This document shows, in pieces, positions 42,887 through 51,896 of a stretch of DNA of 64,000 bases (position 1 is the stretch's first letter; every line of letters starts with the position of its first letter). Where the stretch lies: NCBI RefSeq assembly GCF_013167455.1, contig NZ_CP038328.1. One strand, 5' to 3'. The stretch is from Escherichia coli O157:H7 (lineage in GTDB: Bacteria; Pseudomonadota; Gammaproteobacteria; Enterobacterales; Enterobacteriaceae). Below the pieces are notes generated by a model. That model was given only the letters and a program-made list of their open reading frames with translations. It made no database searches and was not told the DNA's origin. The translations under genes were made by a program, and so were the position numbers.

Positions 42887-42910
42887 AACCCCCGCTTGTC
42901 GGGGGTTTTT
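42887..42910 (+). terminator. zipA rho-independent terminator immediately upstream of ligA
   Basis: AACCCCCG-CTTGT-CGGGGGTT followed by TTTTT. Confidence 0.8.
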
Positions 42911-42918
42911 AGCATTGA

Positions 42919-44943
<2,025 letters not shown>

Positions 44944-44944
44944 G

Positions 44945-45163
44945 ATGGAAAAAGAGCAGCTGATTGAAATAGCCAATACGATAATGCCGTTTGGCAAATA
45001 CAAAGGGCGTCGCTTAATCGACCTGCCGGAGGAGTATCTGCTGTGGTTTGCCCGCAAAGATGAGTTCCCGGCAGGGAAGCTCGGTGAGCTAATGCAAATC
45101 ACGCTGCTGATTAAAACCGAGGGGCTGACGCAACTGGTCCAGCCCCTGAAGCGTCCGCTTTAA
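44945..45163 (+). CDS. ypeB: small DUF3820-family protein YpeB
   Basis: 72-aa product from ATG 44945 (MEKEQLIEIANTIMPFGKYKGRRLIDLPEEYLLWF...), overlapping ligA stop by 1 nt (TGAGATG region). Confidence 0.75.
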   Translation: MEKEQLIEIANTIMPFGKYKGRRLIDLPEEYLLWFARKDEFPAGKLGELMQITLLIKTEGLTQLVQPLKRPL

Positions 45164-46158
45164 GCTTTATCGGCGCTGCTTTCCTGCTGCGCCTGTAACT
45201 GTTCGGTCTGGCGTTTGTATCGACGCGCCAGCACCGCACAGACCATCAATTGGATCTGATGGAAAATCATCAGGGGCAGCACCATCATACCGATCACCGA
45301 TGTGGGGAACAGAATGTTTGCCATCGGGATGCCATTTGCCAGACTCTTTTTCGAACCACAAAAGACGATAGTAATTTCATCTGCCTTATTGAAGCCCAGT
45401 CGGCGTGCCATAAAGACGTTAACTACAATCACGATAGCCAGAAGAACGCAGCTGACCACCACGATAAACAGCAATGATCCCCAGCCAACTTTATGCCAGA
45501 TACCATTAACGACGGCTTCGCTGAACGCTGTATAAACCACCAACAGAATGGACGTCTGGTCAGTTTTCGCAATCCATTTTTTATTGCGCGACACCCAGTC
45601 ACCAATCCACGGCCGGGAAAGATGCCCCAACACAAACGGCAGCAGCAGTTGCAGCATAATTTTACCGACCTGCTCAAGGCTGCCCCCTGCACCGTGAACA
45701 TTCATCACCAGACCAACCAGCAATGGTGAAAGGAAAATCCCCAGCAGACTGGATGCTGACGCAGAACAAACCGCCGCCGCGACGTTACCGCCCGCCATTG
45801 ACGTGAAGGCGATTGCAGACTGCACGGTAGCCGGGAGAATGCACAAGTAGAGAAAACCGGAGTAGAGCATCGGGTCGACATTTACCGGTTTCCACCAGGC
45901 AAACAGTACACCCAGAATCGGAAACAGCACGAAGGTGCTGCACATTACCCACAAATGCAGTCGCCAGTGACCACCGCCAGCAATAATCGCCTCACGCGAC
46001 AACTTCGCGCCGTGCATAAAGAACAGCAGGGCAATAGCTGCGGTGGTCAGATTTTCAAAGAAGGGGACGAAATCGCCTCTGGCAGGAAAGAAAGAGGCCA
46101 GCAACACCACCGTGATCAGGGTTAAGGTGAAAGGATCGAGGATACGAAAAAGTTTCAT
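45160..46158 (-). CDS. yfeH: bile acid:sodium symporter (BASS)-family transporter
   Basis: 332-aa polytopic membrane ORF; divergent from LysR-type yfeR. Confidence 0.85.
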   Translation of the reverse strand: MKLFRILDPFTLTLITVVLLASFFPARGDFVPFFENLTTAAIALLFFMHGAKLSREAIIAGGGHWRLHLWVMCSTFVLFPILGVLFAWWKPVNVDPMLYSGFLYLCILPATVQSAIAFTSMAGGNVAAAVCSASASSLLGIFLSPLLVGLVMNVHGAGGSLEQVGKIMLQLLLPFVLGHLSRPWIGDWVSRNKKWIAKTDQTSILLVVYTAFSEAVVNGIWHKVGWGSLLFIVVVSCVLLAIVIVVNVFMARRLGFNKADEITIVFCGSKKSLANGIPMANILFPTSVIGMMVLPLMIFHQIQLMVCAVLARRYKRQTEQLQAQQESSADKA

Positions 46159-46247
46159 AAAGACTCCAGATGATCGATGGTTCTATTGTGCTTCTTCCAG
46201 TTTGAGAAATAAAATTGATTTATTGCATCCATTCATGAAGAAAACAG

Positions 46248-47174
46248 ATGAATTATTCTTTAAAACAATTAAAGGTTTTCGTCACAGTAGCGCAGGAGAA
46301 AAGTTTTAGTCGTGCAGGAGAGCGTATCGGCCTGAGCCAGTCGGCAGTAAGTCACAGTGTGAAGGAGCTGGAAAATCATACTGGTGTTCGCCTGCTGGAC
46401 AGAACCACGCGTGAAGTGGTGCTTACAGATGCAGGGCAGCAGTTGGCTTTGCGTCTTGAGCGACTGCTGGATGAACTTAACAGCACGTTGCGCGATACCG
46501 GGCGTATGGGGCAACAACTGAGCGGAAAAGTTCGGGTCGCTGCCAGCCAGACCATTTCCGCGCATCTTATTCCGCAATGCATTGCTGAAAGCCATCGCCG
46601 CTATCCAGATATTCAGTTTGTCCTGCACGATCGTCCGCAGCAGTGGGTGATGGAAAGTATTCGCCAGGGAGATGTCGACTTTGGCATCGTCATCGATCCA
46701 GGCCCAGTGGGCGATCTGCAATGTGAAGTGATTCTTTCCGAGCCTTTCTTTCTGCTTTGCCATCGGGATAGCGCTTTGGCCGCGGAAGATTATGTACCCT
46801 GGCAGGCATTACAGGGAGCGAAATTGGTGTTGCAGGATTATGCGTCAGGCAGCCGACCGCTGATTGACGCAGCGCTGGCGCGCAATGGTATTCAGGCGAA
46901 TATTGTGCAGGAGATTGGACATCCGGCGACGCTGTTCCCGATGGTAGCCGCAGGCATCGGCATTAGTATTCTTCCCGCACTGGCGCTACCATTGCCTGAA
47001 GGTAGCCCGCTGGTGGTAAAGCGCATTACGCCGGTGGTGGAACGCCAGTTGATGCTGGTGCGTAGGAAAAACCGTTCACTTTCCACCGCCGCTGAAGCGT
47101 TATGGGACGTGGTACGAGACCAGGGCAATACGCTAATGGCTGGGCGGGAAGGGGATCCGTTGTATCAGATATAG
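46248..47174 (+). CDS. yfeR: LysR-family transcriptional regulator
   Basis: 308-aa ORF with N-terminal LysR HTH ([38 protein letters not shown]). Confidence 0.87.
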
Positions 47175-47506
47175 ATACCGATATGAGTCGTATTTTCAAC
47201 AGGATTTAGAAGGGATACATTCAGAGACAAACGCTGCTCTTTCTCCTGCGCCTTTTCTGCCTGCTGTCTCTGCAACTGCGCCAGTTGTGTTTCCAGTAGG
47301 GTGATTTGCTGTTGAATCAATTCGGCCTGTTTTTGCTTGTCTTCAGCACTGCCGCTAGTGTCTACAATCTCTTTAATGTGTTGAGTGAGTTTGATGATTT
47401 GCTGACTTATCCGCGCGATTTGTGAAGCAACATCGCTACCTTGTGATGCCCTGTTACTACTCTGTGTTTGTATGGAAGGAATTGAAGTTGAAGAGATAGT
47501 GGCCAT
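47165..47506 (-). CDS. FlxA-like Gln/Ser-rich coiled-coil protein (113 aa), probable sigma-28-dependent
   Basis: [29 protein letters not shown]...[30 protein letters not shown] 7 nt before ATG; visibly lower GC than neighbours; upstream sigma-28-like promoter. Family assignment from recall of FlxA character, not a search. Confidence 0.6.
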
Positions 47507-47534
47507 TGTTCAGTCCTCGTCACTGTACGAGGTA

Positions 47535-47561
47535 ATATCGGCAGAAGAACAAGGAACTTGA
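47535..47561 (-). promoter_or_regulatory. putative sigma-28 (FliA) promoter for the FlxA-like gene
   Basis: On - strand: TCAAGTTC-N11-GCCGATAT versus consensus TAAAGTTT-N11-GCCGATAA (6/8 and 7/8, exact 11-bp spacer), ending about 28 nt before the start codon. Confidence 0.55.
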
Positions 47562-47593
47562 GAAGAAAAATCAATCTTACAAATCGCAGATAG

Positions 47594-47621
47594 CAAAAAA
47601 GCGCCTTTAGGGCGCTTTTTT
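47594..47621 (-). terminator. rho-independent terminator of the valU-valX-valY-lysV operon (symmetric, A-run/T-run flanked)
   Basis: AAAAAAGCGCC-TTTAG-GGCGCTTTTTT hairpin immediately 3' of lysV. Confidence 0.75.
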
Positions 47622-47625
47622 ACAT

Positions 47626-47701
47626 TGGTGGGTCGTGCAGGATTCGAACCTGCGACCAATTGATTAAAAGTCAACTGCTCTACCAACTGAGCTAACGACC
47701 C
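47626..47701 (-). tRNA. lysV: tRNA-Lys (anticodon UUU)
   Basis: Reverse complement reads GGGTCGTTAGCTCAGTTGGTAGAGCAGTTGACTTTTAATCAATTGGTCGCAGGTTCGAATCCTGCACGACCCACCA. Confidence 0.95.
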
Positions 47702-47705
47702 GAAG

Positions 47706-47781
47706 TGGTGGGTGATGACGGGATCGAACCGCCGACCCCCTCCTTGTAAGGGAGGTGCTCTCCCAGCTGAGCTAATCACCC
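47706..47781 (-). tRNA. valY: tRNA-Val (anticodon UAC)
   Basis: Reverse complement reads GGGTGATTAGCTCAGCTGGGAGAGCACCTCCCTTACAAGGAGGGGGTCGGCGGTTCGATCCCGTCATCACCCACCA; third of three identical copies. Confidence 0.95.
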
Positions 47782-47827
47782 ACTTCGGTACTTCACATTT
47801 TTACAAGAAATTTAGCTGGTGAGAAAG

Positions 47828-47903
47828 TGGTGGGTGATGACGGGATCGAACCGCCGACCCCCTCCTTGTAAGGGAGGTGCTCTCCCAGCTGAGCTAATCA
47901 CCC
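47828..47903 (-). tRNA. valX: tRNA-Val (anticodon UAC)
   Basis: Identical to valY copy. Confidence 0.95.
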
Positions 47904-47947
47904 ACTTCTCAATTTCTTGCTACACGGCGGAGACTACATAAAGTAGT

Positions 47948-48023
47948 TGGTGGGTGATGACGGGATCGAACCGCCGACCCCCTCCTTGTAAGGGAGGTGC
48001 TCTCCCAGCTGAGCTAATCACCC
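47948..48023 (-). tRNA. valU: tRNA-Val (anticodon UAC)
   Basis: Identical to valY copy; first gene of the tRNA operon. Confidence 0.95.
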
Positions 48024-48040
48024 CCGCTGTGTGGAGTCGC

Positions 48041-48068
48041 ATTATAGGGAGAGTTCAAAATGAGTCAA
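48041..48068 (-). promoter_or_regulatory. sigma-70 promoter of valU-valX-valY-lysV operon
   Basis: On - strand TTGACT-N16-TATAAT followed by GC-rich discriminator (GCGACTCC), just upstream of valU. Confidence 0.7.
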
Positions 48069-48281
48069 CGCATTTTCTAAAGAAATTGTTCGTTCGTCGT
48101 AAATTTAAGCAAGATGATCGCAAAACAGACCGTGTTGCGCAATTTGTCAACGAAAACAATAATGCGTAAGGTTGCAACCCGAACTACATTGAGGAATCAG
48201 GCGGGAGTGATAGAATATCGCCCACTCAATTTTTCCAGGATTTGCCGGTTGTCGGCATCTTTCTAAACGTAAGGCCATTTC

Positions 48282-49697
48282 ATGAAAATCAAAACTCGCT
48301 TCGCGCCAAGCCCAACAGGCTATCTGCACGTTGGCGGCGCGCGTACTGCTCTTTACTCCTGGCTTTTTGCACGTAATCACGGCGGTGAGTTCGTGCTGCG
48401 TATTGAAGACACCGATCTTGAGCGTTCCACGCCGGAAGCTATCGAAGCCATTATGGATGGCATGAACTGGCTGAGCCTGGAGTGGGATGAAGGTCCGTAC
48501 TTCCAGACCAAACGTTTTGATCGCTACAACGCGGTGATCGATCAGATGCTGGAAGAGGGCACAGCTTATAAATGCTATTGCTCTAAAGAGCGCCTGGAAG
48601 CGCTGCGCGAAGAGCAAATGGCGAAAGGTGAGAAGCCGCGTTATGACGGTCGCTGCCGCCACAGTCATGAGCATCACGCTGATGATGAGCCGTGTGTCGT
48701 ACGTTTTGCTAACCCGCAGGAAGGTTCTGTTGTTTTTGACGATCAGATCCGTGGTCCGATCGAGTTCAGCAACCAGGAACTGGACGATCTTATTATCCGC
48801 CGTACCGATGGTTCCCCAACCTATAACTTCTGTGTGGTTGTCGATGACTGGGATATGGAAATCACCCACGTTATCCGTGGCGAAGACCATATCAACAACA
48901 CGCCACGCCAGATCAACATTCTTAAAGCCCTGAAAGCGCCGGTACCGGTTTACGCGCACGTTTCTATGATCAACGGCGATGACGGCAAAAAACTGTCCAA
49001 ACGTCACGGGGCAGTCAGCGTAATGCAGTATCGTGATGACGGTTATTTGCCAGAAGCACTGCTGAACTATCTGGTGCGTCTGGGCTGGTCCCACGGCGAT
49101 CAGGAAATCTTCACTCGTGAAGAGATGATCAAATACTTCACTTTGAATGCCGTCAGCAAATCTGCCAGTGCGTTCAACACCGACAAGCTGCTGTGGCTGA
49201 ACCATCACTACATTAACGCGCTGCCGCCGGAGTATGTTGCTACTCACTTACAGTGGCACATTGAGCAGGAAAATATCGATACCCGTAACGGCCCGCAGCT
49301 GGCTGATCTGGTGAAACTGCTGGGCGAACGCTGCAAGACGCTGAAAGAGATGGCACAGAGCTGCCGTTATTTCTACGAAGATTTTGCTGAGTTCGATGCC
49401 GACGCCGCGAAAAAACATCTGCGTCCGGTAGCGCGTCAGCCGCTGGAAGTGGTTCGTGACAAACTGGCCGCGATTACTGACTGGACAGCTGAAAACGTTC
49501 ATCACGCTATTCAGGCGACGGCGGATGAGCTGGAAGTGGGTATGGGTAAAGTTGGTATGCCGCTGCGTGTCGCCGTAACCGGTGCGGGGCAGTCTCCGGC
49601 GCTGGACGTTACCGTTCACGCGATCGGTAAGACCCGCAGTATCGAGCGTATCAACAAAGCGCTGGCTTTTATTGCGGAACGCGAAAATCAGCAGTAA
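48282..49697 (+). CDS. gltX: glutamyl-tRNA synthetase
   Basis: 471-aa ORF with HIGH-class motif ([12 protein letters not shown]) and KLSKR (KMSKS-like). The antisense 366-aa ORF 48147..49247 is a shadow. Confidence 0.97.
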
Positions 49698-50240
49698 TTA
49701 GCGCATAAAAGATAAACGGCAGGAGAGATACCCCTGCCGTTTTTTATTTATCCGGTGCGCCGTAAAACCCCGTCCTTCAGGGCGGGGATATAAGGCGCGG
49801 TTTTCCACCTGACCAGGTGTTTGCTGTTGTTCAATGTATTGGCGGATGACGGATATTGGCGCACCTCCGCAGCTACTGGCAAAATAGCCAGGACTCCACA
49901 AAACGCCTTTGTAGTAATACCTGACTGCAATATCTGGTCGATCTCGTCGCAGTAACCTACCCGATACGCCTTTGAGGCTGTTTACCAGACTGGATATCGC
50001 CAGTTTGGGAGGATAGTTAGTTAACAAATGGACGTGATCTGGTTCGCCATCCATTTCAACCAGTTCAGCTTCAAAATCAGCACATACATTTGAAAAGTAA
50101 GTGCGTAGTTTTTCTGTCGCGTCATAGTCAAAAATCTGACGTCGGTATCTGGTGACAAAGAACAGATGAACATGCATCAGGAAAACACAATGCCTTCCCC
50201 GTCGGATATCGGTTTCTTTATTCATAGACCAAAGTATCAT
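49698..50240 (-). CDS. tnpA: IS200/IS605-family Y1 (HUH) transposase TnpA, with unusual C-terminal extension
   Basis: ORF contains DIRRGRHCVFLMHVHLFFVTRYRRQIF...DHVHLL (HuH motif)...SPGYFASSCGG...IRQYIEQQQ; ORF continues ~40 codons beyond the usual end, through the gltX terminator. Start may be ATG 50225 (MNKETD...). Confidence 0.75.
   Translation of the reverse strand: MILWSMNKETDIRRGRHCVFLMHVHLFFVTRYRRQIFDYDATEKLRTYFSNVCADFEAELVEMDGEPDHVHLLTNYPPKLAISSLVNSLKGVSGRLLRRDRPDIAVRYYYKGVLWSPGYFASSCGGAPISVIRQYIEQQQTPGQVENRALYPRPEGRGFTAHRINKKRQGYLSCRLSFMR
49718..49747 (+). terminator. gltX rho-independent terminator
   Basis: CGGCAGG-AGAGATACC-CCTGCCG followed by TTTTTT, 20 nt after gltX stop. Confidence 0.75.
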
Positions 50241-50247
50241 TTGGCCT

Positions 50248-50583
50248 GTGAAACGACTACAGGCATTTAAATTCCAGTTAAGACCAGGTGGTCAACAGGA
50301 GCGTGAAATGAGGCGCTTCGCAGGCGCATGTCGTTTCGTTTTCAATCGTGCTCTGGCGCTTCAGAATGAGAATCATGAGGCCGGTAATAAATACATCCCT
50401 TACGGGAAAATGGCTTCCTGGCTGGTTGAGTGGAAAAACGCCACTGAAACGCAATGGCTTAAAGATGCCCCGTCACAGCCATTGCAACAGTCACTGAAAG
50501 AGCTTGAGCGGGCTTACAAAAACTTCTTCCGGAAGCGGGCTGCTTTTCCCCGATTCAAAAAGCGGGGACAGAATGATGCATTC
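50248..50583 (+). pseudogene. tnpB: tnpB (RNA-guided nuclease of IS200/IS605 family), N-terminal fragment interrupted by IS629
   Basis: GTG-start ORF (M)KRLQAFKFQLRPGGQQEREMRRFAGACRFVFNRALA..., typical TnpB N-terminus; terminates at the first triplet (TGA) of the IS629 left end. Confidence 0.8.
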
Positions 50584-50637
50584 TGAACCGCCCCGGGAAT
50601 CCTGGAGACTAAACTCCCTGAGAAAGAGGTAAACAGG

Positions 50638-50964
50638 ATGACTAAAAATACACGTTTTTCCCCCGAGGTCCGTCAACGAGCAGTTCGTATGGTTCTGGAA
50701 AGTCAGGGCGAATATGACTCACAATGGGCGGCAATTTGTTCCATTGCCCCAAAGATTGGCTGTACACCAGAGACTCTGCGTGTGTGGGTTCGTCAGCATG
50801 AGCGGGATACCGGGAGTGGTGATGGTGGACTCACCACCGCTGAACGTCAGCGTCTGAAAGAGCTGGAACGTGAAAATCGTGAACTGCGCCGCAGTAACGA
50901 TATCCTTCGCCAGGCTTCCGCTTATTTTGCGAAGGCGGAGTTCGACCGCCTCTGGAAAAAATAA
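50638..50964 (+). CDS. IS629 OrfA (HTH / leucine-zipper transposase N-terminal protein)
   Basis: 108-aa [60 protein letters not shown]... Confidence 0.9.
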
Positions 50965-51851
50965 TGCCGCTGCTGGATAAGCTGCGTGAGCAGTACGGGG
51001 TCGGACCGGTATGCAGTGAACTGCATATTGCCCCGTCAACGTATTACCACTGTCAGCAACAGCGACATCATCCTGATAAACGCAGTGCCCGTGCTCAGCG
51101 CGATGACTGGCTGAAGAGAGAGATACAGCGCGTATACGATGAAAATCATCAGGTGTACGGTGTGCGTAAAGTCTGGCGCCAGTTGTTACGCGAAGGTATC
51201 AGGGTGGCCAGATGTACAGTGGCGCGCCTCATGGCGGTTATGGGACTTGCCGGTGTTCTCCGGGGTAAAAAGGTCCGTACTACCGTCAGCCGGAAAGCCG
51301 TTTCCGCAGGCGACCGCGTAAACCGTCAGTTCGTGGCAGAACGTCCTGACCAGCTGTGGGTGGCTGATTTTACTTACGTCAGCACATGGCAGGGCTTCGT
51401 CTATGTGGCGTTCATCATTGATGTGTTTGCCGGATGTATCGTGGGGTGGCGAGTCTCATCGTCTATGGAAACGACATTCGTGCTGGATGCACTGGAGCAG
51501 GCGTTGTGGGCCCGTCGGCCGTCCGGCACAGTCCATCACAGTGATAAAGGTTCTCAGTATATATCACTGGCCTATACGGAGCGACTAAAAGAAGCAAAAC
51601 TGCTGGCATCAACAGGGAGTACAGGTGACTCGTATGACAACGCGATGGCGGAGAGCATCAATGGTCTTTACAAAGCGGAGGTAATACACCGTAAGAGCTG
51701 GAAAAACCGTGCAGAAGTGGAACTGGCCACACTCACGTGGGTGGACTGGTATAACAATCGACGATTGCTGGGAAGGCTGGGTCATATCCCTCCGGCAGAA
51801 GCAGAAAAAGCTTATTATGCTTCCATCAGAAACGATGATCTGGCAGCCTGA
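50964..51851 (+). CDS. IS629 OrfB (DDE integrase-type catalytic domain), expressed as OrfAB by -1 frameshift
   Basis: 295-aa ORF in -1 frame relative to orfA with DDE-region sequence (WVADFTYV...HSDKGSQY...NAMAESINGLYKAE); A-rich slippery stretch GGAAAAAATAATG at the overlap. Confidence 0.9.
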   Translation: MPLLDKLREQYGVGPVCSELHIAPSTYYHCQQQRHHPDKRSARAQRDDWLKREIQRVYDENHQVYGVRKVWRQLLREGIRVARCTVARLMAVMGLAGVLRGKKVRTTVSRKAVSAGDRVNRQFVAERPDQLWVADFTYVSTWQGFVYVAFIIDVFAGCIVGWRVSSSMETTFVLDALEQALWARRPSGTVHHSDKGSQYISLAYTERLKEAKLLASTGSTGDSYDNAMAESINGLYKAEVIHRKSWKNRAEVELATLTWVDWYNNRRLLGRLGHIPPAEAEKAYYASIRNDDLAA

Positions 51852-51896
51852 GTTCACAGATAAAACACTCTCCAGGAAAACCGGGGCGGTTCATTC

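Follow-up and report, generated by a model that had tools for sequence, protein, structure and literature searches.

The window analysed here is a stretch of 64,000 nucleotides (nt) from Escherichia coli O157:H7 (contig NZ_CP038328.1). We have concentrated on a small gene of the FlxA family that lies between yfeR and the tRNA gene lysV, and on the region upstream of it, which carries a candidate promoter for the flagellar sigma factor sigma-28 (FliA). The window is of the O157:H7 type, with positions 46900-47900 being 100% identical to FRIK1989 and positions 42900-50583 being 99.97% identical to Sakai. The features that belong to the gene itself are the following:

47165-47506, minus strand: flxA-like gene, 113 amino acids (aa) plus stop codon, ATG start, the sole open reading frame (ORF) between yfeR and lysV
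47518-47514, minus strand: Shine-Dalgarno GAGGA, 7 nt before the ATG at 47506, read from the sequence
47542-47535, minus strand: predicted sigma-28 -10 element GCCGATAT, matching consensus and matrix, 28 nt upstream of the ATG
47561-47554, minus strand: predicted sigma-28 -35 element TCAAGTTC, with an 11-nt spacer to the -10
47526-47528 (about 47527), minus strand: predicted FliA-dependent transcription start, from sigma-28 numbering, giving a leader of ca. 20 nt
47532-47527 and 47520-47515, minus strand: arms of the inverted repeat CCTCGT-N6-ACGAGG, of which the 3' arm covers the Shine-Dalgarno

By its sequence the 113-aa ORF is a FlxA-family gene. The protein matches the Pfam FlxA model (PF14282) with an i-Evalue of 3.4e-13 and a score of 50.0 (residues 15-92 against model positions 4-82 of 101), and BLASTP aligned it to the FlxA of E. 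coli K-12 with 43% identity across the 74 aa of the helical core (E=3e-12), so that the resemblance to FlxA pointed out in a first-pass annotation of this DNA, made from the sequence alone, is borne out. It is also recognized by PHROG 11044, a family built around the K-12/Qin FlxA (the window protein with E=3.8e-8, K-12 FlxA with 1.8e-71). The layout found in an alignment of 58 orthologous sequences, namely ca. 110 aa, a variable N-terminus, a conserved helix and a C-terminal I-D-I-Y-I/V, is that of the FlxA family, with one exception in the window allele, where Gly replaces the conserved Asp109 of the C-terminal motif (I-G-I-Y-I). A scan of the protein against NCBIfam returned just sub-threshold coiled-coil noise, and PF25764, a KIF21A-like coiled-coil domain matched by some Erwiniaceae homologs, was discarded as uninformative. 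The first-pass annotation had also taken the gene to be unannotated, which is not the case: RefSeq has it as WP_000201407.1, "FlxA-like family protein" (the name carried by every listed E. coli record), and in the curated Sakai record the gene is named flxA (ECs_3279, NP_311306.1).

The obvious point of reference is the FlxA of K-12 (b1566), which is encoded in the Qin cryptic prophage. The two proteins are homologous and of comparable length (110 aa in K-12, 113 aa in the window), sharing a disordered N-terminus, two helices and a C-terminal I-D-I-Y-V/I, and the promoters are also alike, that of K-12 flxA reading TAAAGATT-N11-GCCGATAG at 23 nt from the ATG, compared to 28 nt for the window gene. 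However, K-12 flxA is located within the prophage, between relBE/ydfV and the dicC region, whereas the window gene is chromosomal, placed between lysV and yfeR, and syntenic across the Enterobacteriaceae and Erwiniaceae. Besides, tblastn of the window protein against 50,697 phage records gave zero matches, which argues that the window gene is not phage-borne. K-12 flxA is bound by FliA, deletion of fliA brings its expression down from 280 units to 2, and it has been reported as having no obvious motility role (PMC4183435). Its FliA dependence has therefore been measured, while that of the window gene is predicted from the sequence.

The sigma-28 consensus, allowing up to three mismatches, is expected to occur 0.46 times per window by chance, and the motif alone is thus weak evidence. 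We used a position weight matrix derived from the in vivo FliA sites obtained by chromatin immunoprecipitation sequencing, either all 49 sites or the 25 strongest (Fitzgerald et al., 2014; PMC4183435 Table 2). With this matrix the flxA-like site scored 19 bits, the best among ca. 128,000 window positions (the next best having 16-17), a value that would rank it ca. 17th-20th among the 49 in vivo sites, and it sits exactly at the position expected for the promoter of the flxA-like ORF. The promoter put forward in the first-pass annotation is therefore supported by the matrix scan. It is of the TAAAGTTT-N11-GCCGATAA type found in the class-3 FliA promoters (flgKL, motAB, tar, fliC), and both of its deviations are known in FliA-bound promoters: GCCGATAT is also present in the bona fide motAB and modA FliA promoters (PMC4183435 Table 2), and the flgKL and fliL promoters, both FliA-bound, likewise have TCAAG as their -35 core (PMC4183435). 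Unlike those class-3 promoters, the candidate in the window would drive a small uncharacterised protein and not a known structural, motor or chemotaxis component.

Some variation at this site and elsewhere in the window can be mentioned at this point. In E. coli C and W the -10 reads ACCGATAT, as opposed to GCCGATAT in the window (position 47542); an A at the equivalent position is also found in the FliA-bound ycgR and fliDST promoters (PMC4183435). The second-best match to the matrix, GAAATATATTTCGGGGTTTGCCGATAGT (25683-25710, minus strand, 16-17 bits), is located within and co-oriented with a 445-aa ORF (24792-26129), and resembles the weak intragenic FliA sites reported for K-12.

The decisive evidence for a sigma-28 promoter, as judged from the sequences, is its conservation. 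A comparative scan with one genome per species, starting from a 9-sequence alignment, provided 57 loci from ca. 15 Enterobacteriaceae genera; for the promoter 56 loci were kept as the ortholog set and three weak-scoring loci were set aside. The -10 was GCCGATA in all 56 orthologs, the next base being A in 20, T in 18, C in 16 and G in 2, and the -35 core TCAAG was found in 39 of them. The spacer measured 11 nt in 44/56 and 12 nt in another 8, and the distance from promoter to ATG ranged from 25 to 33 nt, in a context of spacers and flanks that diverge freely. Among the Erwiniaceae the cores were TAAAGTCG-N11-GCCGATAA in Pantoea and TCAAGTCT-N12-ACCGATAA in Erwinia. The promoter was also kept in species in which xapA, and not the tRNA operon, lies upstream. 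Membership of the FliA regulon, which the first-pass annotation had offered as a candidate assignment, is supported by a promoter position and core maintained in ca. 56 orthologous loci plus Pantoea and Erwinia, and from these comparisons a FliA-dependent class-3 expression of the window gene is very likely. Along similar lines, AGG/GAG purine-rich motifs occupy the place equivalent to the Shine-Dalgarno in the orthologous leaders, and many leaders of Enterobacter, Citrobacter and Leclercia contain a conserved TTTTATGGCG/TTTAGGCA ca. 9-14 nt past the -10, near the expected start.

The surroundings of the gene are as follows:

46248-47174, plus strand: yfeR, LysR-family regulator, convergent with the flxA-like gene
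47176-47571, no strand assigned: 396-base-pair (bp) segment containing promoter and coding sequence, from the blastn breakpoints against a K-12-type genome
47621-47595, minus strand: intrinsic terminator of the valU-valX-valY-lysV operon, AAAAAAGCGCC-N5-GGCGCTTTTTT, found by inverted-repeat search, with 11-nt arms that are 100% complementary
47626-48023, minus strand: tRNA operon with lysV (47626-47701) and three tRNA-Val(UAC), from ARAGORN and Rfam tRNA matches

The tRNA operon and the flxA-like gene are transcribed in the same direction, and the 3' ends of yfeR and the flxA-like gene share 10 bp (47165-47174). The layout is the one described in the first-pass annotation, with the ORF, the promoter, the GAGGA, the inverted repeat and the 10-bp overlap with yfeR all in place. 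Its statement that K-12 carries xapR-xapB-xapA-yfeN at this position agrees with the annotation of the K-12-type genome. Compared to the latter, homology breaks off immediately past the stop codon of yfeR and is found again from 47572 on, ca. 10 nt upstream of the -35, and where the window has 396 bp the K-12-type genome has 4390 bp (yfeN, xapA, xapB, a DUF1427 ORF and xapR). The 396-bp segment was detected in 1317 of 5426 complete E. coli genomes, including O157:H7, O55:H7, E. coli C, B/BL21 derivatives and W. There are thus two haplotypes among the complete genomes of the species, one with the flxA-like gene only (ca. 24%) and one with xapRBA-yfeN only (ca. 76%, K-12 among them).

Beyond E. 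coli the picture is far more constant. The gene order gltX-valU/X/Y-lysV-flxA-like-yfeR-yfeH-ypeB-ligA recurs in Pseudocitrobacter, Kluyvera, Enterobacter, Lelliottia, Leclercia, Buttiauxella, Atlantibacter, Pluralibacter and further genera, and likewise in the Erwiniaceae Pantoea and Erwinia. The lysV-yfeR interval thus holds the same gene in ca. 15 genera of Enterobacteriaceae plus those two, and in nearly all of the 57 species loci the place is occupied by the flxA-like gene and the neighbour is yfeR. The scan was limited to a pattern and gave no locus for Klebsiella pneumoniae, Raoultella or Salmonella, which we do not read as absence. In Citrobacter, some Enterobacter and Atlantibacter subterranea, xapR-xapB-xapA coexist with the flxA-like gene, being located upstream of it, and in Buttiauxella massiliensis yfeN is immediately upstream. 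The constancy of the synteny and the coexistence with xapRBA indicate that the flxA-like gene is the constant resident and that xap and yfeN are the variable parts. On this comparative basis a flxA-like gene beside yfeR is the ancestral state of the Enterobacteriaceae and Erwiniaceae, and K-12, which has only the Qin paralog, has lost it. Like other alternative cassettes at one locus, the xapABR-yfeN segment of K-12 and the segment of O157:H7 are mutually exclusive and have common flanks; unlike them, neither looks like a mobile island and both gene sets are found together in other genera, which makes differential loss as likely as replacement. We favour a reading in which both E. coli haplotypes derive, in alternative ways, from a fuller ancestral locus and were spread by recombination. 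Taken as a whole, we are confident that the window gene is a chromosomal, vertically inherited member of the FlxA family, a predicted class-3 sigma-28 gene and an old resident of its locus.

The lysV-yfeR interval has still other states. E. coli MLI104K2 (NZ_CP116925.1, 2890-4100) has a third, scrambled one, with 16 nt of yfeN besides a K-12-like end of yfeR, xapB fragments that are 84% identical to K-12, and a flxA-like pseudogene whose identity to the window is just 75% and which a 65-bp fragment of xapA interrupts. An RtT repeat unit, missing from the window, separates lysV from the promoter or from xapR in W, SCU-102 and K-12-type genomes.

The protein appears to be constrained. The ORF was intact in 56 species, with lengths of 102-121 aa (mostly 110-115), and the conserved parts were an N-terminal M-T/A-T-I, a 15-residue stretch of helix and the C-terminal I-D-I-Y-I/V, preceded by His or Gln, (H/Q)-I-D-I-Y-I/V. 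Three of the four residues of the I-D-I-Y motif (I108, I110 and Y112) were each conserved in at least 90%. The ratio of nonsynonymous to synonymous substitution rates (dN/dS, Nei-Gojobori) had a median of 0.11 over 32 unsaturated between-species pairs and was 0.19 against Pseudocitrobacter faecalis. These ratios indicate a clear purifying selection on the flxA-like ORF between species and genera. Clear homology to FlxA and a median dN/dS of this size are the opposite of the missing homology, or the poor conservation and non-coding dN/dS, that the first-pass annotation had named as grounds for giving up its proposal.

Several observations weigh against our interpretation. A literature search on the expression of the window-type paralog (FlxA-like, ECs3279, NP_311306) found nothing relevant, and its FliA dependence rests on sequence and conservation. 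The structure model discussed below is of moderate confidence (pLDDT, the predicted local distance difference test, of 67), and its fold matches are generic. The exoproteome table in which the K-12 "Protein FlxA" appears enriched, together with FlgK, FliD, FliC, FlgL and FlgM, also includes the cytoplasmic CheY, and concerns the K-12 paralog (PMC6391000). Finally, the E. coli alleles differ from the window mostly by nonsynonymous (N) and few synonymous (S) changes, with 4N/0S in C, 5N/0S in W, 9N/4S in EC1 and 7N/3S in SCU-102; the O157/O55 allele has the private changes Q43H, K104N and D109G, the last one affecting the conserved motif at the C-terminus; and in other assemblies the gene is found frameshifted or truncated. 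From these small counts, constraint on the gene may be relaxed within E. coli.

These allelic differences could mean that the gene is decaying in E. coli, particularly in O157:H7/O55:H7, where it would be a relic still transcribed by sigma-28 but encoding a protein free of selection. The pseudogene remnant found in one strain and the 76% of complete E. coli genomes from which the gene is missing would fit with decay as well. On the other hand, neither the window nor any of the five E. coli alleles examined shows damage to the ORF, the start codon, the Shine-Dalgarno or the promoter, very short divergence is known to inflate dN/dS and the counts are of 4-13 differences, and selection between genera is clearly purifying. 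We consider that decay is an unlikely description of the gene, and retain that of a vertically inherited FlxA-family member.

The inverted repeat around the Shine-Dalgarno opens a different alternative. The hairpin CCTCGT/ACGAGG could hide the Shine-Dalgarno in those transcripts that start upstream, for instance by read-through of the tRNA operon, leaving mRNA started by FliA translatable. Such a fold-back control would be comparable to the way in which IS10 shields its transposase from outside transcription. The hairpin folds at -8.6 kcal/mol, the predicted start site is at the end of its 5' arm, and it is kept in Pseudocitrobacter, with a similar one in Kluyvera (CCTTAT/ATAAGG, two changes on both sides). 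With the sigma-28 numbering of an open-complex structure paper, (-15)GCCGATAA(-8), the 5' arm falls at -5 to +1 (PMC12784957), and the full hairpin would therefore be formed only in transcripts starting upstream and not in FliA-initiated mRNA. However, a fold of this stability is within what chance allows, being equalled by 17 out of 200 shuffles (z = -1.4). Neither was covariation found over 54 orthologous leaders by permutation of the arms: the leaders' own arms paired no better (mean -3.91 kcal/mol) than swapped arms (-3.74) or the reversed-arm control (-3.75), with z = -0.82 and 1009 of 5000 permutations being as good. The complementarity can be explained by a pyrimidine-rich tract after the -10 that faces the purine-rich Shine-Dalgarno, and the arrangement of the promoter is unchanged in species without an upstream tRNA operon. 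An Rfam search of the leader found no family match, and a conserved RNA element was rejected after the folding of each ortholog and the permutation test. Fold-back control seems to us quite improbable, and the hairpin, unproven, is probably incidental. Of what had been proposed at first, a hairpin in the 5' untranslated region overlapping the Shine-Dalgarno, the inverted repeat is present, but the position of its 5' arm at -5 to +1 and the missing covariation do not support it as a feature of the mRNA leader.

It could also be argued that the sigma-28-like motif is not the working promoter, and that the gene is driven by read-through from the tRNA operon or by an unrecognized sigma-70 promoter. 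The chance expectation given above, the position of the gene downstream of lysV on the same strand, and the many FliA-bound sites of K-12 that have no detectable regulation (PMC4183435) would all be in favour. Against this, the -35 and -10 cores, the spacer and the distance to the ATG are kept in 56 species amid bases that diverge, and also where xapA takes the place of the tRNA operon upstream. The terminator of the tRNA operon, with its perfect 11-bp stem, lies between lysV and the promoter, just upstream of the latter, and by its sequence can work in both directions; a simple terminator scan missed it, apparently because A/T runs were counted into the stem. A promoter scan upstream of the ORF gave no sigma-70-like promoter. 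We find very little room for this explanation and continue with sigma-28 as the predicted driver of the gene.

Convergence with yfeR raises the question of whether the transcript, rather than the protein, is the main product. No terminator was found by a scan past the flxA-like stop codon up to the body of yfeR, and the sigma-28 transcript thus probably extends antisense into yfeR. FliA-driven convergent transcription would then lower yfeR, and hence yfeH, in motile cells, and the overlapping or near-abutting convergent layout is kept in two bacterial families. Yet the protein has conserved motifs and is under purifying selection, and the prophage paralog keeps protein and promoter without any yfeR. 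It is very doubtful that the transcript is the main product; an antisense effect might still accompany the protein. As to yfeR itself, the Sakai record (NC_002695.2, 35445-36371) flags it (ECs_3280) as a pseudogene, while the window has the full-length ORF (308 aa) and PGAP, the Prokaryotic Genome Annotation Pipeline, has it as intact in FRIK1989.

The first-pass annotation had interpreted the gene as a horizontal acquisition linked to the tRNA. The GC content of the flxA-like gene is 0.44 and that of the window 0.53, a modest gap; the alternative segment of K-12 has 0.47, also below average, and a low GC is in keeping with a short gene whose product abounds in Gln, Lys, Glu, Ser and Ile. No att-like direct repeats were found around the 396-bp segment (47176, 47571), which consists of promoter and coding sequence with no integrase or mobility gene. 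A low-GC cassette acquired beside lysV and displacing xapR-xapB-xapA-yfeN, for which the GC, the adjoining tRNA operon and the presence in just ca. 24% of complete E. coli genomes could be invoked, is most improbable given the same placement in two families, the coexistence with xapRBA in Citrobacter, some Enterobacter and Atlantibacter, and the missing integrase and flanking repeats.

A likely insertion element is found elsewhere in the window. The window has an insertion of ca. 1.3 kb (50584-51892) that is missing from FRIK1989 and Sakai, located inside the tnpB/insQ of an IS609 (IS200/IS605-family) element beside gltX. It contains two consecutive ORFs, of 108 aa (50638-50964) and 295 aa (50964-51851), and looks like a member of the IS3 family, of the IS629-like kind.

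From the sequence, its conservation and established knowledge of the flagellar cascade, the expression of the gene would proceed as follows. FlhDC would activate fliA and, once the hook-basal body is completed, FlgM would be exported, leaving sigma-28 free. The sigma-28 RNA polymerase would bind TCAAGTTC-N11-GCCGATAT and start ca. 8 nt past the -10, near 47527, producing an mRNA with a short leader and an accessible GAGGA Shine-Dalgarno. Transcription would probably continue past the stop codon, antisense into the 3' end of yfeR.

With regard to the protein, AlphaFold2 (27-sequence alignment) placed helices at 24-49 and 54-98 and disorder at 1-21 and 99-113; it consists of a disordered N-terminus rich in Ser, Thr and Gln and two long helices, which probably pair as a hairpin coiled coil. 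A sequence search of the Protein Data Bank (PDB) with the family profile retrieved designed or generic coiled coils only, and Foldseek of the model against the PDB gave nothing at E<=0.001, the top match being CdsO (E=0.24), a generic helical hairpin. CdsO is presumably a stalk protein of the FliJ/YscO type. The proteins accompanying K-12 FlxA in the exoproteome (FlgK, FliD, FliC, FlgL and FlgM) are flagellar export substrates. This lead, together with the class-3 timing and the disordered N-terminus, is behind our tentative suggestion, which may well be wrong, that the protein either assists the flagellar type III export apparatus as a non-essential accessory factor or is itself exported by it as a late substrate. 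Small proteins of flagellar export (FlgM and the FliJ/CdsO-type hairpins) are comparable to it in their small size, the disordered N-terminus, the helical hairpin and the timing as class-3 genes; however, they have no sequence homology to the window protein, and the generic fold match to CdsO is one of resemblance and not of membership.

FlxA has reportedly been a textbook FliA-dependent gene since 1997, its function being uncharacterised, and to our knowledge it has been studied only as a prophage gene of K-12. What we describe here is the native chromosomal flxA of enteric bacteria, an uncharacterised gene within a known family. The gain is modest, as the gene was already annotated and the regulatory prediction follows a known paralog, but the evolutionary inference is corrected in its direction for a locus at which K-12 and O157:H7 differ. 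Its orthologs form a chromosomal group with a fixed locus across Enterobacteriaceae and Erwiniaceae, always with a predicted sigma-28 promoter, which argues for a conserved role timed with the flagellum and not for prophage cargo. The native copy is present in O157:H7 and in E. coli W, C and B, the last of which is not flagellated. More speculatively, and we think this unlikely to be right in full, the FlxA proteins might be an overlooked and ancient class-3 component of the flagellum, exported by the type III gate or acting at it late in assembly, with a transcript that may couple motility to the transporter module yfeR-yfeH. If this were true, FlxA would, for example, modulate the export of late substrates or be itself a secreted factor, and its canonical copy would have escaped study, K-12 having lost it and kept the prophage paralog.

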